Assembly (NCBI GenBank): GCA_039545335.1
Contig: BCIN01000002.1
Span: 186,001-250,000, forward strand
Source of the DNA: Kondoa subrosea
Taxonomy: Eukaryota
DNA length: 64,000 nt
Reading direction: 5' to 3'
In this document: in pieces, positions 3,199 through 60,403 of the stretch
How positions within the stretch are numbered: position 1 is the first letter of the stretch
Layout of the letters: each line of letters starts with the position of its first letter
Translations under genes and position numbers: made by a program
The notes under the pieces: model-generated
The model's input: the letters and a program-made list of their open reading frames with translations, nothing else
The model's database searches: none
What the model was told of the DNA's origin: nothing

Positions 3199-5208
3199 AT
3201 GTCGACCTCAATGTCTAACGACACAAAGAAAGCTCTTGCTGTGAATAATCTGCATGCTATACAGAGAGACCAGCCCATAATAAGCTCAATCCCGTTCTCT
3301 TGAATAGCTTGCAATTTCTGGAGCTGGGATCTTAGCTTGGGCATTAACGCCTTCAGGCAGTATCTTGGAACGATTTCGAATTCTTGGATTGAACGTACCA
3401 CACCCTGATAGAAGCTTAACCTTGGATCAATTCATCAAAAGACAATCTCGAATTTCATGGAAGAACTTGATGGCTAATGTACATCCCAAAGGAACTGCAC
3501 CTGGTTGTATAGTCGCTTCACCTTCAACCTACAAACCAGATTATTTCTATCAATGGACTAGAGACGCTTCTTTAGTCTTGAGAGCGATTGTGAGGAAATA
3601 TGAAGAAGGAGACAAAGACATGTTCCCTATTCTGCAAGACTTTGTGGAAGCTACCAAAGATATGCAACGACGTGATACTCCTTCTGGTGGTTATAGGACC
3701 GGTGGGTTGGGTGAAGTCAAATTCGAAGTTGACAGGACTCCATTTACTGGTGGGTCCATTCGCTGAAGACCTTATAAGTCCACGCTGAGCTCGCTGATTA
3801 GGCAATTGGGGACGACCGCAAAGAGGTTTGTATTGATATTTGGGCTCCCTGAATCATGCTGACTTAGCTTCAAGACGGACCTGCACTTCGCGCTTCAGTA
3901 TTGATGGCTTTCGCAAAGAGTTATCAGAAAGTTGATGCACCTAAAGCGCAAGAATACATCGTCAAGCACCTCTATGACGGTCTGGATCTGACCGAGACTG
4001 CTGTCAAAGGTAGGAAAGGAGATTGCATCGTCAGGCTGTCACTGATTCTGTCATTTCTTCTTTTCGCAGCCGATCTAGACTATGTCGTGGAATATTGGAA
4101 TCTTGAAGCTTTCGATCTTTGGGAGGTGAGCGAGATGTGCCTTTTGCCGGAATCTCTATTCTGATACACTCTTGTTTTCGTTATAGGAAGTGAATGCCCG
4201 CCACTTCTATACCTTACTTGTGCAACTTCGAGCAATGAAAGAAGGAGCTCTCTTCGCTAAAGAACTTTCCGATCTGTCTTCAGCTAAACGCTATTCGGAA
4301 ACAGCTACAGCGATTGAAGAAACCCTTGAACGATTCTGGGATTCGGAAAGAGGTTATTTGCTTGCAAGTATAGATGAAGTAGGTCATAAAGCCAACCCTA
4401 AAGACTCTTGGTTGGATACTGCAAATGTGTTGGCTGTACTTCATGCTGGTGAATCTTGTGGAAAATGGGATGTCACCAACGATAAAGTTTTGGCGACTCA
4501 TGTTGCAATTGTTAACTCAATGAGGTGGGTTGTATTTCATTAGTATTGTCGGAGTACTGAATTATTGTTGTTCTTAGACCGGTCTTCTATCCTCTCAATA
4601 AGCAATATGAGGGTCAATTCGCTTGTGCTGTGGGCCGCTACCCAGAAGATGATTACGATGGTGTTGGTCTGAGCAAAGTCAGTATTCCGCTGCTTGACTC
4701 GTGTGTTTAAATTGAAGCATAAATTAGGCGCATCCATGGTTTCTTTGGTGAGTACGGTTCTTGCGCAAGTAGAGAATACTATTGACTTCTTTATGCAGCT
4801 GTCTAGCTCATGCTGAATTCCTCTATCGCCTTACACACGCTCTAGAACGTTCTACCATTCAAATCACTCCTATCTCACGCGATTTCTATGAAACATTGGC
4901 AGGCAACGCTTTCTCACCATTGCAGGAAAGCATCAAACCTTCTTCCGATGTTCACAGCCATTTACTGCAAGCTATCTGGAAACGAGCAGACGACTTCGTT
5001 CAGATCGTTAGGGATCACAAAGGATGCAATGGATCCATGTCCGAACAATTCTCGAGGGAAGATGGACGGCCTACTGGTGCAGCAGACTTAACGTTAGTTT
5101 GTTTATACTGTAAGACTACCAGGTCTGATATGGTGATTCGCATACAGCTGGAGTTATGATGCTTTCCTCTCAATGCACGATGCAAGACAAGGCAAGAAGA
5201 TGTTTTGA
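3199..5208 (+). CDS. Glucoamylase, glycoside hydrolase family 15 (multi-exon; no C-terminal CBM20)
   Basis: Motifs VASPS..PDYFYQWTRDA, GLGEVKF, WGRPQRDGPALRA (rebuilt across introns), FDLWEE, SEQFSR..G, DLTWSY. The N-terminus has a hydrophobic segment (LAISGAGILAWAL). Stop at 5206-5208. Confidence 0.95.
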
Positions 5209-14288: not shown

Positions 14289-15059
14289 CTATCTTGCTAC
14301 TTTGTGTTCTCTGAGCTGCAGATCCGTCTCTTCCATCCAAGCCATTACTCCTTTCTCCTCATATATCCTGCTCAATTTCTCTTCATCCAATATCGGTTTC
14401 GGGCCACTCTCTTGCTTGAAACCTTGCAAGAAGTCCGGTATCTTAATCTTGGCTTGTACCCAAACCGGTGCATCTCTCTTCATCTTTTCCACGAAATCCT
14501 TGACCTACAATACTTTGAAATCAGCAATCGAATCTATACTCTTCTCAAAACGCGGAAGACATACAGTCCAAGTATCCATACTTTTAGCAATCAAATAGCC
14601 AGCCGAACCAAAAGTACCCAAAACGATACAAGTAGCAATACCAAAAGCTTTAGCGGTGAAGAAAACTGGATCAAAGTTATCCCCTTCTTGCGATAAGACA
14701 ACAGGTTGAGGTTTCTCTAAATCATCACCTCTAACAAAAGCCCAGAAGGAATCTTGTTTCTGAATCCTTTCGCTCGTCAATGCTGAAGAAGCTGAAGAAG
14801 AATGGAGGATTGTCTTGTTATTCAAGAAATTGATTGATTTAGTAGAAGTAGAAGTAGAAGGTGATAGATCACGTAAGCGGAGTTTGCTATTACCAGCATT
14901 GATAGAAGGGGGACTTTGTACTTTCTTGAAAAGATACTTGGCTGTTCTACCTGTGATGAACAAAGTAACGCCAGCTGCGGTTATGAAGATTAAAGGCAGT
15001 CGTTTCTTGAGTCTATCTCGAGCTTCTTGATCTTCCGTTATTGTTGTCGAATTCGACAT
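14289..15059 (-). CDS. Putative mitochondrial two-TM protein, AIM11/TMEM242-like
   Basis: Two hydrophobic segments; FTAKAFGIATCIVLGTFG..YLIAK..(intron)..DFVEKMK pattern. Family assignment is from memory of the motif. Confidence 0.55.
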
Positions 15060-15129
15060 GCTTGTTCGCGGAAGAGAAGTGAGTTTGGTTACATACGGCT
15101 ACACACTGCTCTGATATATTCTGCAAGCA

Positions 15130-16057
15130 ATGGTCAAACTGAGTACGCTGAGCATTGGGCCGCAAAGATCTTGAGGGAACAGAAAGAGCTGATATAAACG
15201 GAAGTGCAGAATATGAGATCAAGGCTGATTTGGAGAACGTGACTGATCTGGAACCTGTCGACTCTGTAGAAAACTTCTCTCCTGCTTTCAAAGTGCAGTG
15301 TACATCTGTAGGTCTTGCGGAGTCGCTCAAATCAATGTGTCATTGATAGTGTCATTTCGGTCATCTACAGTGTGAGTATCTCATTACTTTCCCACACATG
15401 TATAGTTATCCTGTCAACAGGCAGAGAAATACATCCCAATTGGGTCACTGTGGATCCGACAGTCCGTCACTGCCTGACTTGATAATTCTTGCTCTGAAGG
15501 TCTGATGCCCAAAAACGGTATAGGAAGACAGACCTATGCAAGGATCTCGCGGAACAGCTCATTTTGTTTGGAAATGTTTATCATGCAAAGTGCATTTATC
15601 TTTTCTTTCCTCTTGTGTTCATTCCCTCTGATGAACTGGGACACGATGTTTCCATAGAGAGCGGCTTCAGCTTCAATAGATACTACTTTTAAACGATCAG
15701 CTTTAACAGCAGAACAAAGTGAGAATCACCAATGGGCTACTTTAGGCGTTGTGGAATGTCGAGGATGCGAATTTGTTGAATTCGATCCGAATCAAGTCAG
15801 TACTTTTCATTGTCAAGATTACATTTTAGAATGTTATCCTGATTTTGAGTGCTGATAGGTCATGTGGAAATGTCAAGGAAGGGAATCGGGAACCAAGTTT
15901 GCTGATTTCGAAATTGAAGATTGGACAGATTATGATGGTGAGCGGATCTGATCGCTGTTTGAAATTACTTCTCATACAGCCTCATGGTTCGTTCACAGAA
16001 AAAGCGAGCGAGCCTGTTGGGATCACAGAAGTCCAGAGTAGAATAAGTAGAGCATGA
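15130..16057 (+). CDS. CXXC zinc-binding protein, DUF866/UPF0587 (CZIB/C1orf123 family)
   Basis: IKADLENVTDLEP, FKVQCTSCRE.HPNWV, GSRGTAHFVWKCLSCK, VECRGCEFVEFDP, DWTDYD, EPVGITEV; many short introns. Confidence 0.9.
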
Positions 16058-16148
16058 AGATCGTGTTTGCATTGTGATACACTCAACTAAATACAACTTA
16101 GAAACAACAACAACAGCAGACTACACCTAACAGCAGAACATATCTCTT

Positions 16149-18250
16149 TCACCTATGCGAATAGACTGCATTTCTCATGATGGCTGGTTGTAGTACGATC
16201 AGCTCAATACCGTGTCTCCGACAGTGTCGTGACTCACCAGCCCCTTTCTGAACTCTTTCTTCATAAGTCATATCCTCTATCTTCTTCTCGGCGAACGGTA
16301 TCTGCTCTTTCTTCCGTATTGGCTGCTGTTGAGAAGGGCGAGGTACTTGATCCCTATTGAGCCGTTCTTCTTCTTCTACAGCTTTGTTCAGCTTCTCATC
16401 TTCTTCTTCTTGATTTTTACTTGGCTCGGCAAGATGCAATTTTTCTTTAAGATGGTCAGTGGTAGAATGTATCGCTTTCTGAAACCCTTGCTGTATTTTC
16501 CTTCATCAGTTTCTATTACGGGAGGTGACATAACGAAAGTAACTGACGTAAGTCTCTACACTTTCGATGGTCAAAAGTGATTTCTTGATTGAAACTCGCG
16601 ATAAATCGAGGTTCTGCTCCTCCATATCTTTGATGAACCGTTTAAATTGAGAAGAACCTAATAATCTAAGTTAACATCGGTTCCAGAATCATTCGGGACT
16701 CATCCGACCTGATTTATAGTGCCCAGAAAGAGGAGATAAAGATCGTAGTTGACCATTTTTGATCTGTTTTGCAATGTCAAATCGAAATTGCGGTTTGCAA
16801 GCAGCATAAATACCTTGAGTTGTCCAGCTGTCCTGACTTTGGATCCATACAAGAAAGAGCTGTGTTGAAAACCACCAGTTTGCTAGATCCGCTCAGCAAA
16901 GGGGAAGTAATATGAGGTCGATGAGCAATACCTTTATGCCTACAAACATCCTGCCAGACTATTTGACACTAAATATCAGGTGCAGAAGTGAATACAAGCG
17001 TCGCACCATATCGCAAACAAAGATCCATATCTGCTTCTGCGAAAAGATGGCATGTGAGATAAGTAGAGCATGACTAATTCAGTTGAGTCTATGTACCTTG
17101 GACTTCTTCTTCTTCTTCTCAGGCGGCTTATCAGACTTGCTCCCAAGCTTTTCTTTCCACCTTTCCGTCAAACTCTTCTGTTGCGATACTTGTTCCATTT
17201 GGCCTGCATCTCGACTTTCCAAAGAACTCGTACTCGAAATAGAATCGGCTGAAGTGTAGGGGTCGACTTGTTCATCGTCTTCTTCCGCTTGACCAATGCC
17301 TTGACCATTCCCGAGATCTTTGTATTTGCCTTTACTTGTATCGACCACTTCACCATTACGATGCCAACGTAATTTGCCTTCTTCATCAATTCGTACGAGA
17401 TAGTTGAGACGTTGTTCTTCTGATAAATAGCTATAGACGAATTCAGTGCCATACACTCCAAACGATAACAGGTACTAACGTGATCATTTCTGTGTCTAGA
17501 CGATGTCTAGATCGCTCAGGTAAATCGACTGATCTTCCTGTTAGGCGACATAAGCTAGTATAGCTGGAACGGAGAGAAGGAGAAACCTTCGCCTTCATCT
17601 AGCCAATGAAAGAAATTGTCTGTCGACTGTCGTATCTCATTGGTACACATCCACAAGAGAGCTCGGATATACTCACACTGCTTGCGGCCCATACAGCGTG
17701 ATATTTCTTGAGAGACTGCCTTGAGACTTAGCCATGATAATCAAAGACATTGACCATGACGTACAGAACCATAACGCTGGTATAGCATAAGCATATGTAC
17801 CCAATCCTAGAGTACTGACTAGACGTACATGCTTCGTATCGATCATTTCAAGCCAATAAGCCGAATCTGCGCGACAACATTCAGCTGAACTCACAGGCAA
17901 AAGAGAAAAGGATACTGACCCATATCCTTGTTAGAGCCATTACGACCTTCAACCTCATTCTCTTCGCCATTGCCTTGAGTTCCAGAATGGCCAATTCTTC
18001 CAGCAAAGAAGGTTGATCTCTGCCATCGACTAGCAGAATCATTCTCTCCACTTTTGGCAGCTTTGTGATACTGCTCATGGGATCCTTGTGTCATTATATC
18101 CTGCAGCCTAGAATCCAACGTCATTGATCGCTTTTCATTCTTTCCATTGTTTGGTTTGCTGAGGTAACGGCCTTGCTTCGTTCTTGCTGCTACATGTCGT
18201 CTGTACGAAGACTGGATCACCGTAGCTGCCTGCTGTTGATCCTTCGGCAT
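16149..18250 (-). CDS. IQ calmodulin-binding motif protein (fungal/plant IQM-like family)
   Basis: AATVIQSSYRRHVAAR IQ motif; YWLEMID.KH, NFFHWLDEGEG, YLSEEQRLNYLVRID, FQHSSFL.G, LSPLSGHY motifs across exons. Confidence 0.85.
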
Positions 18251-18348
18251 CCTTCCAAATTGCTTTCGTTTGCAGAAAAAGCGTGGCTTCCATATTTGCT
18301 TTTCATAGACCACGAATCCTGTGTTCTCTAAACACGCTCAAGGCAACG

Positions 18349-19600
18349 ATGCAAGGTCTTAGACACGATTCAGCATCAGCGAAGGAACAGATCTCACCGC
18401 TATTCGTGTATGGGCCTGGCCCTTTGGGACCCGCTCTTCTCAGTGAAGACGACCCTATTGTGCGCCAATTGGAGTACACTCGTGGTCACTTGCAGACAGG
18501 AAGGGCGCTCCAGGCCTTGGCGCGAATTGCGGTCGAAGGCACAACCAGGAGTGTTGAAAGCATCAAACCTATTCTGAAGAATGTCAGTCATAAGCCAGAT
18601 TATTTAGCTTATCAGCTGATTTTATGTGTATTAGTATTTACGCTCTGCGAGTCATCCTCATCTCTTTATTACAAAAGAGGCGACAGAGCTACCCGGCAAA
18701 CATATATGGGGCGAGCAAAGTCGTAACAATCAAATTCTCGTTGAAGCACCTTATCCAATAGCTCGGAAGGAGCCTTCCGCCATCTATCTAGCAGAAAATC
18801 TTATGTCTAGCTTTCAAAACACTTCAGAAGATCATCACCAGCGGATTCCTCTTTTCGCCTTACTACTAGTATGCTATTCGCATCAGATAGCACACGATGT
18901 GCATTACAAGTTTGGCTATGGTCTACTCCTGTATCTGTGACTGCAGGAGGTTATCTGGAATCAGTGGTTACTGGACTGCAAAAGGGTCACTTCGGGGATT
19001 GGCTAGAAAGGGAATTGTTTGGAGGGCGAATTGAAGCTCACTGTCGGTCCACTGGTCTTCTGGTCCGCTAGGTCGTTGGAACTGGCCAGAAGTGCTCTGT
19101 TTGAATATTTGCGGTCCAGAGAAGAACAGAAGCTTTGATGTCCGTGATATTCCATTTGGTGAGCGGGATTTACTTACGTATTTAGTATCGCGCTAACAAT
19201 CTAGTTAGACAATAAATACCTTCAGGATCTTGTATCTGGGTTATGGTGCAGAACTGCACTTCCCCTGCCTTCTCCTACTGCAGCTATCATGCCTAATTCT
19301 TGGATCTCAACGTTGATGCATGATGCAAGAGAGCTTTCCAGCTTGAAGACTTCTCTGTCGCCGAGCCGTGAGTTGGCGAACTCATCATCAGCCGCCAGTC
19401 AGCTTCAACGCCCAGAACAAGACTGGCCTTGGGGAAGCTCAAGGTCCGAAGATAGCACTTCCGCGCCAGCCGGTCTATCACACACAACGAATAACGACAA
19501 TCAGCCTGGTAGCATCGGTCAAGAGCCAAACTCTACTACGGCTTTGTCGAAATTGGTCGCGTATCGAGGTTTCTCAAACTGCACCGGTGATTATGACTGA
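18349..19600 (+). CDS. Hypothetical protein (multi-exon; boundaries uncertain)
   Basis: ATG at 18349 opens a protein-like frame followed by plausible GT-AG introns (~18583-18633, ~19160-19204). No recognisable family. Confidence 0.4.
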
Positions 19601-19666
19601 ATTTGGAATTGATCATGTTGCAACAGTACGTCATGATACCCATAAAAGCGTACTTTTTCATTTACG

Positions 19667-19688
19667 TTTTTTTTTTTTTTTTTTTTTT
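19667..19688. repeat. Poly(T) homopolymer, ~22 nt
   Basis: Direct reading of the sequence. Confidence 0.9.
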
Positions 19689-20044
19689 GAGCAGACCATG
19701 GTGCTTCCGACCAAATATGGACGCCATCATCGTTAGTCTCTTGCGCTCTGCTCTTCGGATGATCACTCATGAAGTTAGTGCAGGAGATTCTTCTCTGCAT
19801 ATACAGTATCATATAGTCAACTTGTGACCTTCTCATGCTCCTCCTCTTATTCAAAATACACCCACTCAAAACTCACAATCGCAATTATCATGCTCTCCTT
19901 TGGCGGAATTTGCACAAATCAGTTCTGCCCACAAGAAGTAACGTATCTAGTGATATCCTCAAACTCGTCAGACTCATTGTTATTGCAGGATACCACAAAT
20001 TAGACAATGTGTTGATTTATCTGCTTCTGTGACATTTGTATCAT

Positions 20045-21576
20045 TTAGTTTGCATCTTGCTTCTCTAGCCAAGCGTTGATATCGTTTCTCCATTTCTCTG
20101 CTTCTTCCACATGAGGCATATGCGAGGAATCTGGTCAATGGTAGTCAGTCATACTTCCAGCTATACGCCAGATCACCAACCTTCGTACTGTGGATAGTAA
20201 ATCGTAAGCATAATTTCAAGCAACGGCATGCAAAAATGACATACGATATACCATTCTGATCCCTGAATTCTATGCTTGATACGTTGAGTGACCCATTCGT
20301 TGACTTCATCATGACGACCTGAAGCGTGTAAAACGGGAATCTTGATTTCATGCAAACGATCTTCAAGGGATTCATCCTTCATTGATCCAACGACGGTGAA
20401 TTCTGGGTGTGAATACCAACATGAACGGAGTGGCAGTCCACAGATCATTCGTACTTACCGTTTGGACCGTTCATAGTGCTAAAAACATTCGTAAGACAAT
20501 GCGAAACTGCAAAATGAAAGCTCAACTCACTTGTAAACAGTCGCATCTTCTTCCATCAACTTGAAGCTATAGCTTACTTCTTCAGGCATAGGTTGTACCC
20601 GACAAACATGCAGCGAGTAAAAGTATTCCGAAGAATCCTGTGTAAGCTTAAAATTAGTAACCATTTTCCCTCAAAATGAAGGGAATACCTTGAACTCTGG
20701 ACTATCGTATTTCTCTTCTTTCAATCCTTTTTGAATGATAGATTTATGAGGCTCGGGCAATTTCTCAATCCAATCAGCGCAACCTTCCTGAGATATAGCT
20801 GGCGGATCAGTAATTAGATTGTTGTAGCAGAAGATTGGACTGACAGAGAACTTGCCCCAATCTGCTATTCCATCTGCATTGATGAAAGCTTTGAAACCTT
20901 TTGGTTGCTCGAGTGCATGAGCAAATCCCAAATATCCACCTGCAATAATGTCTGTGAGCATGTTTGTGAAGCGAGATCGCTTTAACACTCACCCCAACTT
21001 TGACCAATAGCGTAATCTACAACATCATCAGAGAGACTTGACCAATGTAAGAGACAGGAGCTTACAGGTATTGATCTTTAAATGAGCGACCAGACCATTC
21101 AATTCTTTGAGAAAGAGATCAGTAGTCCAAAATTTCCCATCACCAGCTTTCTCTGGTAATCTAGTAGATTTGCCGCATCCCAATTGACTGTCACCAAATT
21201 GTTCAGCAAAGAAATACCATAGTGCAAGTATATGAGAAGATCGAAACTCAACTCGTAGTGAATCACAGCGCGTTTCTCTGATGCCAGATTGGCCATCCGA
21301 AGAGTGCTATTGTTTACCATCAGAAAAACTATTCAACAAGAGAAAGGGAGGATCAACAGACTAATAGTGACATGCTCCAGGTCCTCCATGTAAGATGATG
21401 ATCGGAGGAAGAGAAGCAGTCTTCAAGTCTCCAGTGACACGATAGTAAGTTTTATAACCTGACCATTCGTAATAGCCTTCTATAGTTGGATCTGCAAGCA
21501 ACGAAGACACATGAGGATTATATCACAAGCCATGCTGTTGAAATCTAAATATACCAGGGATGCCAGGAAAGGACAT
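20045..21576 (-). CDS. Proline iminopeptidase / L-amino-acid amidase (alpha/beta hydrolase, peptidase S33)
   Basis: [16 protein letters not shown], nucleophile [22 protein letters not shown]. Confidence 0.92.
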
Positions 21577-22994
21577 GACTGCTTAAAGAGCTTTGTAGAG
21601 GGATTCAACAGATAGTCTGAGTATTTCAAAAGAGTCGCTGTAGCGTTCAGGACAAGATGTAGAAACTATTATGCAACTTGGAGTTGCACGTCGACCTCGA
21701 ATTTCGCATAGAATGCCGCAAACCTTGAGCAGCTGACCTCGAAGACTTGTAGAAGGCCAGTATGGACAGAGCGAAAGCAAGCAAGAGCAGACTACAAGCT
21801 ATACCCGATGACTCTTCTCTTCTGCATTGTGTTTTACTTGCCGCATTGCTCTATAAACACGTACAGGATGCCTTTCGAGAGTCTTGCATTGAGATCCGAG
21901 AGACACGTCCTTGATGGACAATGCCATCCTAGAATTACAGAGCTCATCAAGTGGAATCAATGGCCTTCTGCTATTGCCTGAATGCGGCTCGCTCTGCTAT
22001 ATCTGGGAATGGTACACAGTGTTCGAACAAATCTACGTATCGCAATCCCTTGTCAATCTCCTTGAGACCTTTCCGCAGAAATTGGGATGCTGCTATCCGG
22101 GTCCGAAGTCTCTTGCGGCAGACCAAGGGCATTTGATTGTTACGTCCCGAGATCCGTCCCGAGATCATGGCTTATCTTATTCCTCACTCTTTCTCCTCAT
22201 CCACACTCCTGCTAGCTCAAGAACAGAAATGCATACTATCACAGCCGATTACGACCTTCTCTTACTGAAGAGCATTTGTATGAGGAACGGATATGACGTT
22301 GAAGCCATGGGCCGTCTACCTTGTCGTCCCACTGAGAATTTCGGGCTTCTCTCTGGCTCTCATACGAGCGATATTTTGTATCCTCTGCAAGAACAGCGAC
22401 AGTCGAAATCTTCGAGCTGTTGACATTGAAAAAAGATCCATTGGGATGAAGAGGCAGAACGAGTGCTCAAGCACAGGAAAATGATGAAGACAAAATGGTC
22501 AAGCGCGACATTATTGGACGTACTCTGTAGGTAGGTCTGTTCAAATTGAGCCTGAGTGGTGTTACTTATGCTCCTAATCTTACTTCAATCTCTTGCAGTG
22601 ACTCGTAAATGGCTTGATCGAATAGCTCAAATCCTGTGCATCGAGGCGATTCGCGCAATCGATAATGCTCGATAATGTCTACGAGGGTGATAGCTAGTCT
22701 CATACTCCTGTAATACCTAGTCTCCCTGCAGTCTCAACCTACCGCATGTGTCTCTAGTCTTGCCCAGTTATCAGTACTGTATCTATACTTTGACCGACCA
22801 GTCGGTCTCACTTAGCTATGGCTGCGGTTGTCTGTCTACCATACTCACAGCATCTCCTTGAGAGCATCAGATATCATGCAATCCAAGTAGAATAGAAGCC
22901 TTCTTCCAACCTGTTCTAGCGTTTGTGATCATGCTAGCGAAAAAATCTACTCTGCTCTCTCTAGCGCTGTCTGCTCCCCTTTCTCCTTACAGCG

Positions 22995-25013
22995 ATGATC
23001 TCGCTTCCGTCTTACTCCTGTCCGAACGAAGAGCCTTTTGATCTGTTTGCGCAGCGATTGCATGCTTTCTTTTCAATCCACAATATACAGATCTCTTCTC
23101 TCAAGCACGATGCTCTAGTACTAGCTCTGAAGCCTGGATCTGTGGCTGCTCTCTGGGCAAGCTCTAGTCAATGTTTTGAAGCTAGCTTTGATCGCGCTTT
23201 GAACGATCTACAAACACATTTTGGCTCTTCTGCAATGTATCAAAGTACGGCTCTATCGCACAAAGTTCGTAGCTCAGTACTGATTGTTTGTTTAGTACGA
23301 AGTCAAGCAGCGAGAAACAAACTGGAAGGAAGGGTGTTCAGAGGTATGTCGACTCCTCAAAGCAGCTTCAATAGTCGCTTATATAGGCCTTCTGCGACTA
23401 TACAGATGAGTTACATAGAAAGTAAGCCTGTGTGTTCGCTAGAGCAGCAGTTCCTGACATTTTAGACAGCGAAATGGTCATCGATTTAGTAGAAGAGCTG
23501 GAACTACTAATGCTGAAGGCGGGAATCACGAGTCAAGACGAATCGAGACAGCTCTTTATTCGATGCTTTCGAGAATTCCCGGTAGGCTTCTCTCACCATC
23601 GTCAGTACTCTACTGATGGAAAGTACAGGTGTGCATGAAGATCTTGTCCAAAGCGGTTACCTATGATCAAGCAATACTTGAAGCGCTAAGGTTGGTATCC
23701 CTGGGCATATCCATATGCCTTGCGCTGACAAGAAAAGTAGATGGGAGTCTTTAATAATCCGCAAATCGCAACCTGGCCATACACCTATATCGCCTTCTTC
23801 ATATCAAGACCTTAATACTTCATCTATATCTGTTCACCAATCTAACATCGATCGATCTTCGACATACAGCAATACCAATTCCACAAACGGCAATCTCATT
23901 GCCACTGGTCTCGTTGGAGCTGAACCAGCATCTCCAGCCAGATGGTCAGAAGACTCTGGGTGCGTCTCTTCCCTTCTGCATTTACTTGATGGCTTATACT
24001 TGCTCCAGACCAGATCCAACATACCGATCACCTCGCAATAGCAGGATCAAGCGAACTTCTTCACCTGCGCCTCATGGTCCTCTTCCCGCAACTCCTTCCT
24101 CGCCAGCTAACCGTAGATTATCTCAAATTGATCTCAGTTCCGCTGTCGCACCCGAAGCCTCCTCATTCTCATCCCCCGCTCTCAACAAGCGAGCAAGCTA
24201 CCAAAGCACGCATCGAGTTCCAGTTCCGAAAGTCGTAGCCAAAGTAGATCAAGTTCACGCTCCCCAGCCTCGTTTAGCAATCAGTACAAATACCTTGCGG
24301 CCAGTCTTGGATTCATTTCCCTCGCCTTACAATGCAACAGCCAAAAGTGTCGCAGAGTCGGACTATATGACTGTTCAAGAAGATCTATCTATGAGAGATC
24401 GATCAAGGGATTCAATCATTAGCCATCGATCGCAACCAGAGGGAAATCTTTCTGGGCAGTTCTCTGATCCGAATACGCCTGTTTTGGATGAGAAGAAGAA
24501 GGAAGAGATAGCGGTTGAGGAGAGTCCGACGAGGTTGAAGAGTGATCATCCCTATTTACGCAATGTGGTATGTCTCTTTCTGTTTTCTTCAAACACAAAA
24601 GGCTAAAGAGTAAATTATAGCCTGTGATACCTTTTCCACCATCTCAAAGACCTCTTACCTCTCCCGTCAGATCACGCAGCTCAACGACTACTACGACCTC
24701 AAAATCTCAGAACCGGAATTCTGTTGTTCAATACCACAATGCGAATCCACCTGTAGCTCAAGTAACACCAAAGAAACTCAAAAGACGATCTTCAGAACAC
24801 ACACCTCGAACTTCTTCCAGAAGCAGAAGAGATAGCGCTCGGACTAGTCAAGGTGGTAGTGCGGCGGAATCAGATAGAGAAGGTTATTCAAGTCGAATGA
24901 AGACGTTTCTGAGCGCTTCTCTACGGAGAAAAGGTAGCAAAAACTCGAGCAGGAGTAGGGATGAGGATTCGGTTGAGGCTATTAGCAGTACTGGTAGTTT
25001 AGCGCTTCAGTAG
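22995..25013 (+). CDS. Hypothetical protein: N-terminal Gag-capsid-like helical domain plus long Ser/Pro/Arg-rich disordered tail (6-7 introns)
   Basis: The exon chain uses canonical GT-AG introns (23245-23295, 23344-23465, 23582-23628, 23691-23740, ~23960-24007, ~24568-24620) and stays open to TAG 25011-25013. Gag similarity is by eye only (see findings). Confidence 0.65.
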
Positions 25014-25312
25014 CTTGTGTATGCCTTTTCGGCTTTGCATAACTGATCCAGTTGCCGCACTGACGTATAATCGGTCCATAAATACATCGCATTGTATACC
25101 AGGCTGAAGAGTTGACAAGAAAGTTAGAGACAGCTGCTTATGTAATCGGACAGTACCTTTGTTGCCCAAGCCAATTCAAGGCTTGCGATTGGAAGGACTG
25201 ATACGTCAGTTTGCGTCAGTTGCGCCGGACAGCTAGCTTGATCGCATTGAAAAGACCAGCTCGTTTGTCCAAGGTGTCAATATTGCTGGCGCTTCTTGTC
25301 TTGAGCGTCTAT

Positions 25313-26670
25313 ATGGCTGGAGATGATCAAGGCGCTTTAAGCGTATTGCTGTGTACAGCTGTGAGCTTATAGCAGCTTCCATCGTGTCCAGAGCTGAATA
25401 TCAGACTCTCACTAGGGCTATGATCATGTGCGTTTTCTTGTTCTTTCGTGCGAAGCGCTATTCTCATCTGGCCCTTGAAAGGATAGACCATCCGTCTATG
25501 GGAAGCTTGGTCTGGCAAGAGCTCACGAACAATCCAGCATAGCGATACAGTGCGCTTTGCTCTTGAATCTTTATAACCTCTGATGCGAATTTAACTTCTT
25601 CTTCTTTCTCAAATAATCAGCAAGTCAATCGATTGGCCATTTCACCAGACAAGAGATTCATAGCTGCAGCAGGAGCAGACAAAATTCGACTCTTTGATGT
25701 TCAGCACTCAGGTGTACCTGCAGGTGCTCAAGCAGGTGCTGGAGGTGGATCAAATCCTATCGCCGTTTTCGAAGGTCATACTGGAAACATTACTGCTTTG
25801 GCTTGGCATATTGATGGAAATTGGATCGTTACGGGTAGTGAAGATGGGACGCTTAAGATATGGGAAGTGAGGTAGGGTGTCTTCCTTCATTGATATGCAT
25901 TCCACATTGACAGGCTAGGTGTAATCTACAGAGGCAACACCGTTCAACGCAACTTCGATCACAGATCACCAGTCAATGATTGTGTAATCCATCCAAATCA
26001 AGGAGAATTGGTTTCGTGCGATCAATCTGGAGCTATTAAAGTTTGGGATCTACAGCAAAATCAATGTACACATGAACTGGTCCGTCCTTTCCTCAGCTTT
26101 CCTTATATCATCTTGACATAATTAGGGCAGCTACCGGAAGACGATGTACCAATGAGATCTGTTTCAGTCGCATCAGATGGTTCTTGTCTTGTAGGAGGCA
26201 ACAACAAAGGCAATATCTATATCTGGGGTTGGACAGAAAACGAGTCTGGCGAAACGACCTTGTTTCCGAAACACAAGTTTCAAGCTCATTCCAAATATCT
26301 TTTGAGATGTTTGATGAGTCCGGATACGAGGTTCTTGGCTACTTGTTCTGCTGATACAACAATCAAGATCTGGAATCTGGAACATGGTACACATAAGTTG
26401 GATAAAGTTTTGGAAGGTCATCAAAGATGGGTTAGTCTTTTCTTTCTCAAGATGATACGCAAAAGCTTTTGTACTAATCTGCTCTCCGAGAAGGTGTGGG
26501 ACATGGCCTTTTCCGCTGATTCGGCCTACTTGGTCAGCGCGAGTTCGGATCATACTGCCAGATTGTGGGAACTGGCAACGGGATCAACGGTCAGACAATA
26601 CACTGCACATCAGAAAGCATGCACAGCTATAGCTTTGAACGATGTGAGTGGTGTCTCGCGTGTCAATTGA
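25313..26670 (+). CDS. LST8: TOR complex subunit LST8 (WD40)
   Basis: [100 protein letters not shown]. Confidence 0.96.
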
Positions 26671-26902
26671 GGAGACTCATTCGTTCCTTTGCGCAGATCA
26701 ACTTAGCTTAGAAGGCGCGCGACTAGGTTTATCCAGGAAGCGAAGCGTCGTCAGGATATTGACAGGAATACCAGGCATCAGAAGTTACCCAGACCAATGT
26801 ATAATCAGAAAGCTGAAATCTATGATAATAAAAACTATTATCTTTGCGTGTATCTACATTGCTTTTTGTAATCTATCGTGTCTACCAAAGGTAATTAGTC
26901 CC

Positions 26903-28220
26903 TCAGTCCCAACGGCCACGAGCGCCTGTTAAAGATCAATGATGAGCTCATTCTCGCTCAACACACGGGCAGAGAAGCGACATACGGACAGAGGGGCGAA
27001 GACCATCGGTCAAACTTGACAAAGCTGCAGCGGGTGCTCCAGTGGCGGATGAAAGAGCGGCAGCACTGCGAAGAGCCGTCAACCGAGTATAAAATTGTCA
27101 TCCGATCGAAAGACTTACGGAGCGCCAGTAACAGATGAAAGGGCAGCAGCGCTGGAAAGAACCGTCAGCAATGTATATTATTTTTTCGATCGGAAGACAT
27201 ACGGAGCACCAGTAGCAGAAGAGAGTCTTCCAGAAGCGGAAGACAAAAGACCACCGGCAGCAGCTGTTGCAGAAGGCATCATGCTGCTCATCATCATCGA
27301 ACCAGACATGGAGGCAGATTGAACAGCTCCGGTCAATTGTGAAGCCCAGTATTGGATAGCGGCCTCGAGTGAAATAGGTAGGCCAGCAAGAAGGGCAGCT
27401 TGGTTTGAGCCGCAAACGTTGATGAAGACTTGAAGAGTGGTAACGCCAGTTGTAGCCTATGAGAGTAAGATCAGCTCATTGTGTCTCGAATCAGAGATAG
27501 AACTGACGTTTGCATAGACTTGTAAATCATTGAAAGTGGATGCAACGTCGACACCTTGGGTAGAGAATGCTGCGGTGCTGTTAGCGACTTGGTGAAGGGC
27601 ACCAGTCATCATGTTGATAGTTGAGTTGACCAAGACTTCAGAGACAGAGTAGTTTGCTCCCATTGGCATGTAGGTACGAGTAGCGCCAGTCATGTTGGTT
27701 CCCGAAGAAGCAGTGACCATTCCAGGTCTATATGAGATAGTATGATTAGCAAGTTATAGCTACAATAACGCCAAATTACGTACGCGCTGCCAGTCCAGTT
27801 CGAAAAGTACATCACGGCAGTCGAAAGGTCGACGTTAGTGAAAGTTGTGTTAGCGATGCCATAGGTAAGGGAGTAGCCAGCAGCTTTACAAACGATGTCA
27901 GACTCGGACGCATTGGAACATGGTGGGAGACTCACGGCAATCGTAACCGTAAGAGGTGTTGGCAGTGACTGGGATACCACTGACAGCAGCAGACTGCGCA
28001 GCAGATGGTCTGAAGATCAATCACATAATCAGGCTTGTATTTCTTGGATAAGCATCTAAAAAACTTACACAGGTCCGCTCATTGATGAAGCTGATAAAGA
28101 TTCACCGGGCTGTACTGAAACTACAGCTGAAGCGACAACTGAAGCAGCAGATGGAGCGGCAGAAGACTGTGCTTGGGCATAAGAGGCAAGAGCGAGAAGT
28201 GTTGCTGCAGTGAACTTCAT
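26903..28220 (-). CDS. Secreted Ser/Ala/Thr-rich protein with a central globular (possibly SRPBCC/Bet v1-like) domain and C-terminal AAALSSxTGAP repeats
   Basis: Signal peptide MKFTAATLLALASYAQA; core GTNMTGATRTY...VSEVL...FINVCGSN; several N-glycosylation sequons. Confidence 0.7.
27032..27226 (-). repeat. Tandem ~85-bp exon+intron repeat units
   Basis: Introns 27066-27118 and 27152-27202 are visibly similar and flank a 33-nt exon of repeated peptide. Confidence 0.85.
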
Positions 28221-28668
28221 CTTAGGCGTATGTATGGTTGATAGAGAGAAAAGTAAGAACTACTTGAAAAGGCAAAGAAAAAAGCTAATCCAAAAAGTGA
28301 GACATTGACGAATTAAGTAAATGACACATGTACACGTGCTTGTCGCGACTCCAATTTATTCAGATCACGTAAGCGGCAGATGGAGGTCCCGCTCGGGTTT
28401 CTCCGTTTACTATTTGTAGCAAGGGTCAGGGACAGGAAAGCAGCAGGACGTGATAAGGCGCAAATCATAGTAGGTAGGTAGAGCTCAGCACTTTAAGTAG
28501 ATCAACTGTAAAACACATTGCAAGACGATTCTAAATGCGCATGTACGAACAGCTTTTATACAAATGCCCTAAAGAAATACACACCCAATTGAACTGAACT
28601 GAAAATACACACATGCCCTTGAGCTTATTCACACTTAGATAATGCTTATCGAACGGAACAAGGTTGAA

Positions 28669-30336
28669 TCAAGATCTTTTCGAAGTAGGTGCAAGACTAT
28701 AGAGACAACCAAAAGATCAGTCATGTTCTAAATCACAATGGAATGGAGAAACTTACCTCGATTTTCTTGGTGGCGAAACCGGTGCTGATTCACCATGCAA
28801 AGTCCTCAGACTAGCAATACTGCTCTTATTCTTCAAGCCCAAGAAATTGGCAAACGATTTCTTTGGTTTCAGCGTCTTCTCTACTACTGAAGGGGCTGCT
28901 GCTGATGGTTGTAGGGTGGTAGTAGAAGAAGAATTGGACAGAGTACGATCTCGCGAAGAAGATGACGGAGGCGAAAGTGATTGCGGCGGAGAAGAACGAA
29001 TATGCAACATGGATGCTTTGCGAGGTGGTGGTGAAGGAGTAGTACCTAGCTCCAACGGTTGAACAGCTGTAAATTGTTGATCGATGTATTCCGACCATAT
29101 CGGTTTACTTCCGCACAACATATAGTCTGTAGCTGCTTCTTCGTCCAGAGGTGATTCTGCAATCGAAGGAGGCGATGGCAAGCCATACAAAGAGGATAAA
29201 CTTCCGCTTCTACCCATAATGGAAGAGGTGAAAGATTCAGCTCCAACAGATCCTTTTCTACTACTTCCAGCTGCGCTTGATCGACTGCCAGTCAAGGATG
29301 GAGTGGTGTAAGAAGTGTAAGAAGTCGAGTCTGTTCCAGATGACCATCGGAAAGAGTTTACTGAAGAAGAAGTTTGGTGCGAGGCCGTAGAGCGGACTGA
29401 GGATCTTAGCAGAGGCGATCCATATTCCGATTCAGGATTGGGCGATAAAGGTGGTGTCGAGATTGGACTGGAACGGAGACTTGATACATTGCTATGTAAA
29501 GCGCTGAGCATTCGGTTACCGGCAACTTGACTGTCTGAGAAACCGCGTTTCATCGAAGCAGATGTAATGTTGTCTTTTGGAGGAGGAGCAGGAGGCGTAG
29601 AGAGTCGCTTGCTGGAAGTAAGAGTTTGCGAATATGGTAATTTTGCAGCAGAACAACATTCGGGCGGAGTGAGTTGTAAAGCTGAGATAAGGTCGTTGCC
29701 GACTTGCAATTCATTTGTGATGTTGGATCGAGGAGGAGGCAGGGGGAAAGAAGCTGAGGAAGCCAAAGCACGATAGTCTTCTGCTTGTTGTTGTTTCGAT
29801 GTGATGGGCGAAGTGAATTCAGGGGAGAGAAGGAATCCAGGTTTGCGCGCGGCTGGAGTGGGACTCGTTTGTCTTGCGGGATTGAATTTCTGGGAAGAAG
29901 GCCTAGGTGTCCGTTCTGGATCCATATCTTGAGCCTCATCATAACCCGAATCTCCTGCCTCTTCAGCTAAAGCTTGAGCAGGCCAATCCAACTCATCCAA
30001 GTCGCATGAATCCAATAGTGCTTCCACATCTAAACTCGATAGTGAAGTAGACGAGATGGAAGGATATCTGGAATGACCAGGCTGGAAAGTAGACGCGACT
30101 GATGCATATTGGCTTTGTTGAGATGCTCGAACAGTTTCAGTTCGACTATAAATGTCAAGTGATGAGTACGATATTGAGTATAAAGTGAGACGCGCAATCT
30201 ACCTTCGACTAGATTTATGATAGGGCTCTGGGAAATCTTCGAGAATTGTAGCAGTAGGTGAATGAGGCGCGTCCATAAAGACATCATCCTCGTCTCCTAG
30301 TACTGGTGAAGATGAGATATAACGGAGTGAAGACAT
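28669..30336 (-). CDS. Hypothetical low-complexity Ser/Pro-rich protein
   Basis: 424-aa ORF extends 5' through one intron (~30150-30202) to ATG 30336. A short terminal exon follows GTAAGT at ~28755. Confidence 0.7.
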
Positions 30337-30928
30337 TGCTTGCAGTTCTAGAGGAGAGAAAGCGAAGTATAGACGTGCTTTTTCTGCAGCAGGGCAGGCA
30401 AGCTTGCTACGTGACCGGAATGTTCAAGTAGACAGGTGTGCAGAGCGGCGTGTCAATATAGTGCTCCGAGTCCGAGGAGATGAAGTCGGAATATGTGCGT
30501 TGCCAGATAGATTTGACTTGTACGTGATGGATTGGAGAGAAGGGATTGGAAAACAACAGGAGCTGGCCTTAACCGGACTGTGTTTAGTGCAAGCAAGTCT
30601 CAGCACAGGAATGCTTCAATTTCACCCAAGTCTTCAGACTGACCACAAAGTTCTTGTTCCTTTCGACTTGAATGTCGTGGTATAACGCGTTCTTTTGCTC
30701 CTCTCGTGGTTTGGTATATACACTATTCACTTTGACAGAGTTGGTGGACGCGAAAAAAGTCCCAATCACGACGTTGAGCCTTGTTGTGCACGAAAACAAA
30801 CGCAGAGACAAATCGCTGAACTGTGTCACCGAGCGGGCAAGCGGGTAGCTGTTTATCGGCTTCTATATTCTGTCCTTCGAGACCGTGTGCCTTTGCCAGC
30901 ATGAAAATGAGTGATTTCCGACTTCTTG

Positions 30929-32968
30929 TCATGCAGACAATGTCAATTCATACACTATCCACCCTACACCTTTCAAACTGTCGGTGTTCTCAACCCTTAA
31001 CCTGACGAATGCCCAACCACTCGGTTTCTCGTCTAAATATGTAAGTGGTAAACTTGTCAAAAGTTCAGTCGAACAGCGAGCGAGTCTTCTATGTCGCCTA
31101 AGCCAACTTTGACCTTGATTCCTACTTGATGCAGAAGAGGAAGCTTTGTGCTCAATTTGGTGCTCAATAAGAGGGAAAGCGGGTGATGGGAAATGGGAAG
31201 GATGCTGAGTTGTTTTACAGCTGAAGGCTAGAGATTTCTTGCCTCGAGCGGTTGTCTTGATTCACTCAGAATGTCAGATTGAATATGATCGCGATCAAGA
31301 GAAGTACTGACCCATCTATTACCGTCTCGAGAAACTTCAATTCTAAGATTCGGTATCAAATTTTCTTCATTCTCTATTGTGAGGTGCACATGTATTGTGG
31401 ATCTCGATGCAGGTTTGAAAGTAGACAAGAGCGCTAATCCAATATATTCGTCTTCCTTAATCGCTTATCACAGATGGAGGTTCAGCTCTCCTCGAAAAAC
31501 GATAGAAAGGCACAGACGTACGAAAAGGACTGATCCAAGCAGTACTATGATCTTCATCCACTGCATACGAAGTAGGGTACTTGATGTTCCACTTCTGTAG
31601 AGCTACGACATCTGCGCTTGCTGTCCAATTGCTGAAACCCGATTGAGAAACGCCTAAGAACCCTCTTTGTTCCTCCCATTGCCTCAAGAGCGAATTGGAA
31701 CCAGGCTCTGCATTTATGGGGTAAACGTCCTTTGAAGGTAGATATTTCGGTACATTTGTAATAAACAAACATCGATCTGAAGCGCAAGGACTATTCGATA
31801 TAGTCGTAAGAGGGGCGAGCTCTTGTTTTCTCGGTTCCTTGATCAAAGTATTGACTAGTTTGTTGATGCCGCGATCGATATGAATCTTGTTCCTTTCCAA
31901 TCCATTTGACCCACCGCTGAATCCAATTGGTCTGTCATCCAAACTAACTGCTCTGCTTTCAAGAACTGTAATAGGTCTGTTCAAAGAAGTTGAGAAATAA
32001 TTGTCGGCCAAAGAAGTTTCTTCCGCTGTCAAACTAAGGTCGGAAGAAGAGATCGTTTCCAGGAATTCAAGGGTCTGTTCTTTGGATGCGATAGATCCAT
32101 AACCTAACCAAACGAACTGCGCATCCAAGCCAATTGAGGGGTTTGGAAATCGCCATTCGTTTGCGTAAAGAGATGAAAACTCCTTGTCTGCCACGACCGT
32201 AAGCGAACGAGTTTTGTCTGCCTTGAAGGTGTTGTAAAGTGATTGGATCGACCAGAGAAGGTATTCGTCGTCCAGATGTAGGCAAAAAGGTGTTGCAGCT
32301 GCAGAGCAAGCGAGATGACGGGATAAGAAGAGATGATTCGTAACTGAATTATGGATCCGTAGTCGGAGAGGATGACATTGGAGTGAAGAGAATTCTGAGC
32401 GCGAAAGAAAGGTTGAAGGGTTGTTGTTCCAAATGACTATGTGCTTGATGAAGGGGAATTGGCAAAGATGTTCTACTGATATCTTTAGACTAGAAAGGCG
32501 TTTCCAATTGAGAAGGATAGCTGTCACATCTGCAACGACAGGCTCTACAGCAGCCGGTAGAACAGAGTGAGTCCTGCTGTCTGATATTCCTAAACGATTC
32601 AGGATCGGGTGCTCGTTCGTTACAAGAGAAGAAGGTGATGAAGGATGATACGAGAATGTAGATCGGTATGCTTCGCGAAGACCAAGAAAAGCTAAAAGTA
32701 TGAGAAAAATGGAACCAAGTCGATTGAGACCCAATTTCCGCCGCTGATCATCCGAGTATCGTAAAGCTCTGACGATCGGTCCAGAAGACTTAGGTTTTGA
32801 TGGAGACTCTTGCTTAGCGAAAGGGTTTTGCTCTTTGTTCCAAGCAGCAACGGAAAGGGAAGCGGCTCTTCTATTGGCTGTCCCTTGATGCTGCAACCTT
32901 TCTGATCCACTAGAAGACATTGATTGTTGCAGATCAAAGCGAGCTGAGTCCGTGTGACTTCTTGACAT
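30929..32968 (-). CDS. Type II membrane GT-A glycosyltransferase (GT64/EXTL-like) with a C-terminal discoidin/CBM32-like domain
   Basis: TM anchor SIFLILLAFLGL; VTAILLNWKR..IVIWNNNP..FCLHLDDEY (DxD-like). C-terminus YAVDED.STAWIS...EYIGL...VSRDG.RW...FVRL...W.VYEL. First ATG at 32968 (the longer ORF starts at TTG). Confidence 0.75.
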
Positions 32969-34591
32969 GGGGGTTGCGCTGTCTTCTGTTATCGTATTAT
33001 CCACAACCCATAACCATCTTGCACAGTCCAGTACAGCCAAGTAGATCAGCTCCAACCAAGAGTCCGGTTCTAGCTTAATGAGTTCTTGTCCTTTCCGCTG
33101 AGGTCTGAGTAGAGATGCAGAGCTTCGAAGTGATGATCGTTCCCACGCTTGCAACTTGGATTTGACAAGTTCAGTAAAGCGCAAAGAGCCTTCAGACCGT
33201 CTGGATGTAGATGAAGTAGGTGCAGGCAATCCATTAGGTCGCAGACCGAAGCCTCTATCATCGAATTAGCTGTACTCATGCACTTCTCTTTTGAAACTCG
33301 ACTCACCTGGATTGACCTAACAGCGATACATCTCGTACACGCTTTGGAGTTCCAAACAATGACTTGGAAGGCGAGGAAGGCTCTTCAGAAGCGTCTGCCT
33401 TTACATTAATGTTGATATGCACTTCCGGCGCCGACATTTGCAAGCGTGCTCGTGACCAGCCCAAGCCTAGGTATGGCTCTTTCGATGGATATCAAGCCGC
33501 TGGTGATCTACACGGGGCGCCACAGAGTATATCAGCTTGTTGCATCCAGATGTGACTGTTTATCTCAAACCATGAGCTTTGCCTTGGAGTTTCAAAATGC
33601 TGCAGCAATTGCTCTTTGATCCTACCGATACAGACTGGGTTGAATAGCTCTGGTACCTGCGCTTTTTGAGTTTCCTTCTACAATACTGCTAGCTCTTCAC
33701 GATAAGTAATTCGTATGGGTTGAGCATCATTCTGTCACTTACTGTAATTCACGCTGTGCCCATTTTGGCTGCTGCATGTGTTCAAGAATTCGAGGATCCT
33801 ACTTTTCTATCTTCTCTTTGCTGTCCTTATCGTTCAAACTTCTTCTTCTTCTTTGCTCGCATTATAATCCATTTGGTAGTATCACTTGAATTCCCTTCTT
33901 TTGCCTCTCACTATGAATAATCAAGTTCGTTCGGGACCGGCCGCATGCTGGCAAGATCGTCTAGCAAAGAGGCGTATTGCAAAACTCAAGTTCCCATGAT
34001 CTGCTTCAGCGAAACTTCCGCGATTGTGTTTGAATCTCTGGGTCTAGCTCAGCATCATCCATTTGCCTTGTCATATTCAGGTCGCAAACAAGTCCGACGC
34101 CTCAGAGTGTAGTCTCGGGTACGAAGGGCGTCTTTGGCGGTATGTCTCCTTCAGTTGTACGCGTTTCTTTCTCGCGATAAGTACGTCTGCATGATTCATA
34201 GAGTGTGCACACATCTCACAAAGCGATGGAGAGTGGTCTTTCAAGGTCTTGTGTGGTATTGTCGATTACTCATTTTGAGCTTTCGACACCCAAAAGGATC
34301 TTTTTGCGCTTCAGTGTATACTTGTATGAATGTAGCATCATTGTAGCTACGAGAGACGCGTAAAAATAGAGTTATCAGCGCGCCTGCTTCGCGCCTCCCA
34401 AAATTGTTCAGTCACCCTTTGTCTGATCTCAACGATTCCGTTGGACACTTCTCTCTCTCAAAGCCCAGCTTTGCTTCTCTTCTCGTTTCCAGTCTTCTTG
34501 CATTCCTTTTTGTTACGACCCAGCTGCAGGCCAGCTTTACAAACGACCCGCTTCACATTCCTTTCGAATACTTAAGATAAATCTTACGGCA

Positions 34592-57005: not shown

Positions 57006-57200
57006 GCTTAGAAGTGATCTTCGGTCGAAAGCAGATCTCTGGGCCAGGGTATAAGAGACGGATGAAGAGAGTGATATCAAGCTAGCACTGGTATGGTCCA
57101 AGGAGTGGCCAGGTATCTTCGCAGGCTTTGGCGCCGCTGTTAGCGATGAACGTCTCTTATGTTCCGGACGACGAAGCCAATCTCTCGGATTTTAAGTACA

Positions 57201-58932: not shown

Positions 58933-60403
58933 ATGGTGATACCTGCTTTGAAAGTCGGATCAGAGCTGTTGAACTCGAATCCTGCCTCTGCTTCTCATTT
59001 CGCTCGTTTACCATTCGAAATAAAGAAAGAGATTGTTATGCTTCGTGTACTACCAGAGAATGACTTTAGCGGAAGTAAGCTCATCGCAAAGGAATCTGCT
59101 TAACTCTCGCTGATATCCTGTAGTACCAGACCCTGAATTTGCTGCTTACCCTTGTACTCTGATGCTCAAGACCTACCTTCAATGTCTCACCTCTCTGGTC
59201 GCGGTCAATCGTGACTTCTATCACATTTTATCACCTCTTTTGAAAGAACGAGTGTTCTTCAATGCATGGTCTCAATTATCTGATTACCTCACTACTGGTC
59301 CATCTTCAAGTCCTCGCTTTCAGATACTAAAAGAAGTCCACTTCGTCATTCGTCAAGAGGCACCACCGCAGCCAGTATCGGTAGCTCATCCACCTGATAT
59401 AATTGCCGGTGACATCAAGCGCTTGGTCATTTTTTGTCCATTGTTGCAGGCTGTTACCTTTCGTGTCTATGAGAAGAAGGTACTCTGGCAGGAGATAGAC
59501 GAAGTGTTGATTCCGTCTTACCGAGTCTTGGAATCCGTAACGAGCGAATTGAACCAAGCTGGCATTATTTGGACAATCTTGGATGGTAGCAATAGGCAGG
59601 CATCATCAACAGCACCTGAATACACTTTTCCAGACGCAAAGAGCATGCACCTATTTTTCACCACCATCCATTACCGTCCAATACTTTTTATCGATGGTGT
59701 ATATTCTGGGTTTTGGGATGATGACCTTGCGCTTACAGTGCCCTCTCTCAAGCACATCTACATTGAAGACGATGCCCAAGGTTTAATTGATGCGGAATCA
59801 ATTGCCGGTGTTCTTGACAGCGCCAAAGACTCTTTACAAAGTTTACGCATTAATTTGCCAATTGCCTATTGTGGCGAATTGTCTTCAGCCTCATATTGTC
59901 CCTATCTCACACACCTCACACTGCTTGCAAATTGTATGGTCGTCAACATTTTTGAAGGTTTTGAGCTCTTTCCACCTGTTCACAATCTGAGACTGCCATG
60001 GGTCCACTCAGTACTTTCTCTTGTCGATATTTACAAGCTATTGGAGAGGAATGAAGCTAGAATTGTCAATCTTAAGCACATCCAGATAGACTTACCTGAA
60101 GATTGGGAACAAGATGGAGAACAGGATACACAGAGACTGAGCGCAGTCTCAGAGATTGGTAACGAAGATCTCCTACAATACTATGAAATGCCTGATGCAC
60201 TCTTCTGGTTGCACTTGGGAGAAATCAGTCAATATAATTTCGAGTTGCATCGGGGTAAGCTTACCATCAGGACCATCAGAGATTGGAAATGGCAGATTCT
60301 TTGGAGGTTGCAGAATGATTTGCAGCAGAAGGGCATTGCGGTAGAATTCTGGGTTGGACAGGTCAGAGTTGGTTTGGATCATGTTGGTTATGTCAGGTGG
60401 TAG
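58933..60403 (+). CDS. F-box-like / degenerate LRR protein (may extend to a short terminal exon ending ~60491)
   Basis: N-terminal FARLPFEIKKEIV F-box-like motif, intron ~59075-59122, then LxxLxL-type repeats (LKHIYI, LQSLRI, LTHLTL, LKHIQI). Confidence 0.6.

Follow-up and report, generated by a model that had tools for sequence, protein, structure and literature searches.

A probable Ty3/gypsy-type Gag capsid domain in a seven-exon gene upstream of LST8 in Kondoa subrosea

Background

Has a retrotransposon capsid gene become a gene of its fungal host? The question is raised by positions 22995-25013 (+ strand) of a 64,000-nt stretch of the Kondoa subrosea genome (assembly GCA_039545335.1, contig BCIN01000002.1, positions 186,001 to 250,000), which is referred to below as the window and whose numbering is used throughout. 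A sequence-only reading of the window had proposed that this segment encodes a Gag capsid (CA)-type domain in an intron-bearing host gene, and the analyses reported here support this proposal by profile, fold and language-model tests, with the other parts of an element missing. The segment is probably a host gene of seven exons, located upstream of LST8, whose first ~165 residues descend from a two-lobed CA of the Ty3/gypsy type; taken by itself, Gag descent of this N-terminal head is quite likely.

Much work has been devoted to Gag-derived host genes of animals (Arc, PNMA, PEG10/RTL). Few are known in fungi, and none of those comes from a Ty3/gypsy Gag according to the available text of PMC8321522.

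Results

Similarity of the N-terminal region to retroelement capsids

Unspliced, the segment holds no single open reading frame (ORF). Once six introns predicted from the sequence alone are cut out, its seven exons form a continuous frame of 1647 nt (548 codons and a stop codon), and the observation of a single spliced, multi-exon frame at this position is confirmed. The product consists of an acidic, helical head (aa 1-165, isoelectric point (pI) 5.6) and of a 383-aa tail that lacks cysteine, has a pI of 10.3 and is rich in serine (19%), proline (10%), arginine (9%) and threonine (7%), in agreement with the ~370-400 aa of S/P/R-rich disorder that the sequence-only reading had noted. No CCHC zinc knuckle was found in the spliced protein. 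Three lines of evidence, none of which is decisive alone, connect the head to Gag, namely the profile similarity of its second lobe, the fold model of its first lobe and its neighbours in a protein language model.

For the profile comparison, Ty3/gypsy elements were collected from public contigs using a degenerate pattern for the reverse transcriptase (RT) motif, and the ORFs lying upstream were verified by Pfam. Twelve Pfam-verified PF03732/PF19259 ORFs of metagenomic Ty3/gypsy elements were aligned into a Gag profile, which was iterated to 27 sequences, and the exon-joined N-domain was compared with these profiles by hhalign without secondary structure; several profile settings were tried, all of which are given here. 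Against the 27-sequence profile, residues 63-164 were aligned with a probability of 67%, a P value of 5.2e-5 and a score of 33.1. By comparison, 279 column shuffles attained 23.1 at most, the reversed sequence had 13.2 and the best of 84 other ORFs of the window 19.4. Exons 3-4 alone gave a P value of 8.6e-5 against the Gag profile, while the un-iterated 12-sequence profile gave P values of 6.9e-4 and 1.8e-3. When introns were left in place, the read-through piece scored 10.2 against Gag, which is no signal, versus 32.0 for the exon-joined domain.

Using hmmsearch, the 12-sequence hidden Markov model (HMM) assigned 3.9 bits to the domain in the expected register, a value attained by 4 of 2000 shuffles, and 5-11 of 2000 shuffles scored as high as the domain with the iterated HMMs. 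The same 12-sequence HMM gave -2.7 to 15.3 bits on 15 ORFs that occupy the Gag position and lack a Pfam Gag match; the 3.9 bits of the domain lie inside this range and are what a genuine but diverged Gag typically scores. Both hhalign and hmmsearch place exon 3 on the Gag region 'sv.eY..ef..l...F..GL', and a greedy alignment is collinear with Gag over residues 3-171, with the motif LP(S/T)(Y/F)x(C/G) of the exon-1 family falling on Gag KPxxYxG. Over exons 2-4, the candidate second lobe appears similar to verified Ty3/gypsy Gag at the profile level and in register.

The contigs with the RT motif that come from IMG/VR (L001-L033) are mostly 7-8 kb long, some with caulimovirid coat or peptidase A3 domains, and only three of them (L009, L017 and L023) are gypsy-like, that is long terminal repeat (LTR)-retrotransposon-like; IMG/VR contigs were left out of the Gag profile. 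In L093, the ORF immediately preceding a Ty3/gypsy-type RT motif (3567-4052, - strand) encodes ankyrin repeats (Ank_2, E 9e-34) and not Gag. In L055, the Gag position of a gypsy-type element (1-987, + strand) is occupied by DUF7041 (PF23055, E 2e-13), a family that also occurs among the language-model neighbours of the window protein.

The first lobe was modelled by AlphaFold2 from five family sequences, without any Gag sequence. The resulting exon-1 model is made of five helices, with a predicted local distance difference test (pLDDT) of 62.9 and a predicted template modelling score (pTM) of 0.45, and covers the first lobe only, the second one spanning three exons; a model that included intron read-through (pLDDT 50) was not used. 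In a VIA-align comparison with 48,161 chains, the 35 best matches of the exon-1 model were all retroelement CA lobes, a result limited by the low model confidence and by the warning that the tool gives on helical bundles. Fold matches include Copia (9.3), Arc (9.2), PEG10 (9.1), Rous sarcoma virus (8.7), dArc1 (8.3), murine leukaemia virus (MLV; 8.3), Drt2 (8.2), PNMA2 (7.4), the N-terminal domain of Ty3 (7.2) and human immunodeficiency virus 1 (7.1), and the C-terminal domain of Ty1 CA (CA-CTD) was also matched. Capsids made up 28 of the 31 rows listed by Foldseek for the same model against the whole PDB, and a weak echo only was obtained in BFVD, where 7 of 10 rows with a TM-score on the query (TMq) of at least 0.5 were Gag or caulimovirid coat proteins or polyproteins. 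As far as such a model can be trusted, its all-capsid top list would be hard to explain otherwise. When a complex of two copies of the exon-1 domain was predicted, without controls, the score was 0.01, which weighs neither for nor against self-association.

A feature search of the ESM Atlas placed the window piece at 0.92-0.94 to clusters carrying PF03732 (Retrotrans_gag), PF16297 (DUF4939), PF23055 (DUF7041) and PF19259 (Ty3_capsid). P0008, a homologue 31% identical to the window protein, lands on the same Gag clusters (about 0.91-0.94 for both proteins). Because the counts of shared features are low (118-144 of 256, which is the range of chance matches or distant relatives), these neighbours are a lead and not a proof. 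Bel-Pao-type neighbours (DUF7041, DUF1759) were also seen among the Atlas matches of P0008. Membership of Crtg14, a fungal Gag-derived family described below, was considered for these neighbours and rejected, as neither PEX14 nor a Gag Pfam family was found on the exon pieces and no annotated relative was found.

Homologues of exon 1

A HMMER scan of 1.84 billion protein representatives, using a read-through of exons 1-2 as query, gave five matches. Four of these, repetitive proteins whose similarity to the query is scattered over 4-8 short stretches, were rejected as spurious; the fifth, P0005, is 91 aa long and can be aligned with the window protein over its full length (31 of 93 identities). 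P0007 and P0008 (E 1e-27) came from a profile search, P0009 and P0010 from a cluster look-up. The five homologues are all exon-1 fragments, each found on one or two contigs, and their divergence to 33-36% identity with the window protein shows the exon-1 family to be apparently old enough to have drifted that far. All start at the same methionine, in the context M(L/I)xLP, and 22 columns are invariant when the window protein is included. Identity among the homologues themselves is 72 of 81 residues in exon 1 versus 10 of 28 or 9 of 26 just past the border between exon 1 and intron 1. Because the start is shared and the similarity stops at that border, both the assigned start codon and intron 1 are supported.

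No annotated relative of greater length was found by the exon-1 search or by a family profile search among 8000 candidates. Likewise, a search for related loci in JGI metagenome contigs produced 597 pattern matches, none of which was confirmed.

Gene structure

All exons and introns given here are on the + strand. Exon 1 (22995-23244) begins with the ATG at 22995 and encodes aa 1-83 together with the first base of codon 84, corresponding to the N-terminal capsid-lobe-like domain. It is followed by intron 1 (23245-23295; 51 nt, GTACGG...TACTGAT...TTTAG), which is in frame and free of stop codons, and by exon 2 (23296-23343; aa 84-99), predicted to provide the linker and the first helix of the second lobe (AARNKLEGRVFR). 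Beyond intron 2 (23344-23465; 122 nt, GTATGT...CCTGAC...TTTTAG), exon 3 (23466-23581; aa 100-138) would form the core of the second capsid-like lobe, as judged from its hhalign and hmmsearch register. Intron 3 (23582-23628; 47 nt, GTAGGC...TACTGAT...ACAG) separates it from exon 4 (23629-23690; aa 139-159), to which the last helices of the capsid-like region are assigned, and intron 4 (23691-23740; 50 nt, GTTGGT...GCTGAC...GTAG) comes next. The capsid-like region ends at ca. aa 165 in exon 5 (23741-23959), where an S/T/N-rich disordered tail begins. After intron 5 (23960-24008; 49 nt, GTGCGT...CCAG), exon 6 (24009-24567) encodes S/P/R-rich tail inside a 282-codon open frame; neither exon 5 nor exon 6 has a Pfam match. 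Intron 6 (24568-24620; 53 nt, GTATGT...GCTAAA...ATAG) precedes exon 7 (24621-25013, stop codon included), which encodes the final 130 aa of the tail, a strongly basic segment (pI 11.6) with KKLKRR at aa 469.

All six introns have GT...AG ends, and five fall between 47 and 53 nt, intron 2 alone reaching 122 nt. A CTRAY-like branch motif (CTGAT/CTGAC/CTAAA type) occurs near the 3' end of five introns; that of the remaining one, intron 5, is weaker. Four of the introns are located inside the CA-like region, where at least four had been proposed. An alternative donor of intron 2 at 23422 (GTAAGC) would give a 44-nt intron and 26 additional aa, hence a protein of 574 aa, and was kept as an alternative model; the alignment to Gag is continuous with the 122-nt intron, with a score of 32.0 versus 27.4 for the 44-nt variant. 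Of the two forms in which the sequence-only reading had given the spliced peptide, the one with D was recovered letter for letter over its ~161 first residues, whereas the one with EN requires a 3-nt micro-exon (23419-23421); no other micro-exon in intron 2 would keep the frame, and this one was judged unlikely.

Genomic surroundings

The window contains 151 stop-to-stop ORFs of at least 90 aa, and a Pfam scan of 150 of them detected no protease (PR), RT, RNase H, integrase (IN) or Gag family. The families detected were SNF2, GH15 glucoamylase, DnaJ/TPR, WD40, CDC50, Mis12, Sas10/Utp3, Fe-ADH, biotin synthase and ABC transporter, which by their Pfam assignment are ordinary cellular genes. Direct or inverted repeats of at least 30 bp are absent from positions 15000-33000, and no LTR was found. 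Together with the CCHC search, these results bear out the earlier statement that no zinc knuckle, protease, RT, integrase or LTR is found nearby.

The downstream neighbour (25567-26670, + strand) has fungal TOR-complex LST8 (E 2e-54) as best PDB matches, ahead of mammalian mLST8 (E 5e-36), and the proposed adjacency of LST8 to the Gag-like gene holds. The introns of LST8 are short and of the same style as those of the Gag-like gene. The LST8 matches, this intron style and the GH15 gene point to a fungus whose genome is compact. Upstream, ca. 1.4 kb without recognised gene (21600-22990) separates the Gag-like gene from a minus-strand hydrolase-like gene, of which the HGGPG motif is found in ORF 21361-21522. 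This gap, which includes an ORF of 176 aa without Pfam match (21893-22420, + strand), is unusually long for such a dense window. Elsewhere in the window, four long open frames have no Pfam family at E<=0.001 and may be further lineage-specific genes: 28756-30198 (- strand, 481 aa), 59114-60400 (+ strand, 429 aa), 56220-57191 (- strand, 324 aa) and 62454-63407 (+ strand, 318 aa).

Discussion

Both halves of the head, examined by different methods, point to a retroelement CA and do so in the right order. An alternative is that the gene encodes a lineage-restricted protein made of a helical domain and a disordered tail, without Gag ancestry, in which case its likeness to Gag would come from the common helical-bundle architecture and from chance. 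Several observations weigh in this direction and against Gag descent. A Pfam hmmscan at E<=10 returned no Gag family on six unspliced exon pieces and five family members, and PDB sequence searches with unspliced pieces returned no Gag, the sole match (E 0.95) being an irrelevant transcriptional regulator. The confidence of the exon-1 model is low (pLDDT 63), and Foldseek found no match at E<=0.001 in PDB and BFVD. The N-lobe is devoid of profile signal, the family alone giving a P value of 0.091 against five Gag N-lobes, over 14 columns and out of register. The W of an 'A..W' motif, which had been counted among the Gag-like features, is not conserved in the homologues, the Atlas feature counts are low and the hhalign probability is a mere 67%, with secondary structure unused. 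Furthermore, the Gag hypothesis was chosen on the same sequence, so that P values of 1e-3 to 5e-5 need discounting. The absence of Gag ancestry would nevertheless have to accommodate three methods that designate the same family for two halves of the domain in the right N-to-C order, a fold ranking of 48,161 chains whose first 35 places are taken by capsid lobes only, a profile score far above those of the shuffled, reversed and other-ORF controls, and the position of the 31%-identical P0008 on the same Gag clusters. This alternative is considered distinctly unlikely.

That the locus is a host gene captured long ago, and neither a copy of a transposon nor its remains, is supported by its introns (four of them in the CA part), by the restored frame and by the absence of other element parts, as well as by the small number of contigs on which each homologue occurs and the conservation of the start and exon border; the age of the capture is thereby suggested indirectly. 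A decaying Ty3/gypsy gag pseudogene, whose apparent introns would be frame shifts bridged by chance GT...AG pairs, would account for the Gag-like sequence itself and is compatible with splice sites that are predictions. It fits poorly with six gaps that have canonical ends, most of them with branch motifs and five in one narrow size class, with the single 548-codon frame restored by splicing, with the 282-codon open frame in the tail, with the absence of any LTR, PR, RT or IN remnant and with a start codon and first exon border that are kept in homologues at 33-36% identity, and is very improbable. Another explanation accepts Gag descent and sees in the gene a restriction factor that co-assembles with, and poisons, the capsids of resident Ty3-like elements, by analogy with Drt2/p22 versus Ty1 or Fv1 versus MLV. 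The retention of both CA lobes, the presence of Drt2 and Ty1 CA-CTD among the fold matches, the lack of any transposon detected across 64 kb of a compact genome and a fungal precedent (in the available text of PMC10951436) are in its favour. The ~35% identity between homologues and the conserved gene structure, however, suggest an old and slowly changing gene, not one engaged in an arms race. In addition, Gag-derived restriction factors are not known to have a basic tail of ~380 aa, which also counts against this rather unlikely explanation.

Compared with Gag of Ty3/gypsy elements (Metaviridae; PF03732/PF19259), the K. subrosea gene lacks a CCHC knuckle, PR-RT-IN and LTRs, is not matched by Pfam on the unspliced pieces tested, and has six predicted spliceosomal introns and a disordered tail of ~380 aa. 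It also differs from animal domesticated Gag genes (Arc/dArc1, PNMA2, PEG10/RTL, MOAP1), which belong to another kingdom and to separate families with no detectable sequence relation, by its many introns inside the CA part; Arc and PNMA2 have been shown to form capsids, which the protein described here may also do. In fungi, Wang and Han 2021 (PMC8321522) described three gag co-options, Crtg12, Crtg13 and Crtg14, none having been documented there earlier according to the available text, which reports that they were detected through annotated Gag domains. Crtg12 and Crtg13 derive from Ty1/copia; Crtg14, a fusion with PEX14, is of Bel-Pao origin and contains a single intron in its Gag part. The K. 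subrosea gene resembles these single-copy genes as a probable Gag-derived host gene in a fungus and, like Crtg14, has intron sequence within the Gag-like region; unlike them, as far as that text describes them, it is Ty3/gypsy-like and has neither a Pex14 domain match nor an annotated relative. A later co-option from Ty1' gave rise to Drt2 of S. cerevisiae (PMC10951436). Drt2 and Ty1 p22/p18 of Saccharomyces differ in being recent, CA-CTD-only fragments of Ty1/copia Gag without introns or long tail, according to the available text of PMC10951436 and PMC4599808. No fungal capture of a Ty3/gypsy-type Gag was found in a full-text literature search within the scope of a single library. What distinguishes the gene is how far it has diverged, how many introns it contains and how long its basic tail is; the kind of gene is already known.

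In Gag, Arc, PNMA2 and Drt2, CA lobes are known as modules that oligomerise and bind peptides. If the gene is a captured Gag, as favoured here, the zinc knuckle nucleocapsid (NC), the enzymatic parts and the LTRs of the ancestral element would have been lost, and an S/P/R-rich disordered tail that ends very basic, with KKLKRR, would stand in their place. The CA lobes may then serve to associate with each other or to bind Gag, and the nucleic-acid-binding place of NC may be taken by the basic tail; a CA module joined to a basic, NC-like tail would therefore be expected to form RNA-containing oligomers in the manner of a CA-NC unit. Provided that Gag descent is correct, a role in cellular RNA-protein or capsid-like assemblies is quite conceivable, if short of probable, and a disturbance of the way in which resident Ty3-like elements assemble their particles or a role as peptide-binding adaptor would each be somewhat doubtful. 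The farthest-reaching reading, in which this is the first Ty3/gypsy-type Gag capture to be described in fungi, an old, multi-intron and Arc-like gene invisible to domain annotation, with CA lobes that still form shells and a basic tail that loads RNA, is unlikely.

Divergence and splitting by introns hid the link to Gag from Pfam, from the PDB sequence search and from the HMMER scan, and this probable link came to light only when exons were joined, a dedicated profile was built and folds were compared. If it is true, surveys of annotated domains would undercount capsid captures, and the gene would offer a tractable microbial system in which the function of a CA module could be studied apart from its element. 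Should the shell-forming reading also be true, compact fungal genomes would contain a hidden layer of capsid-derived host genes.

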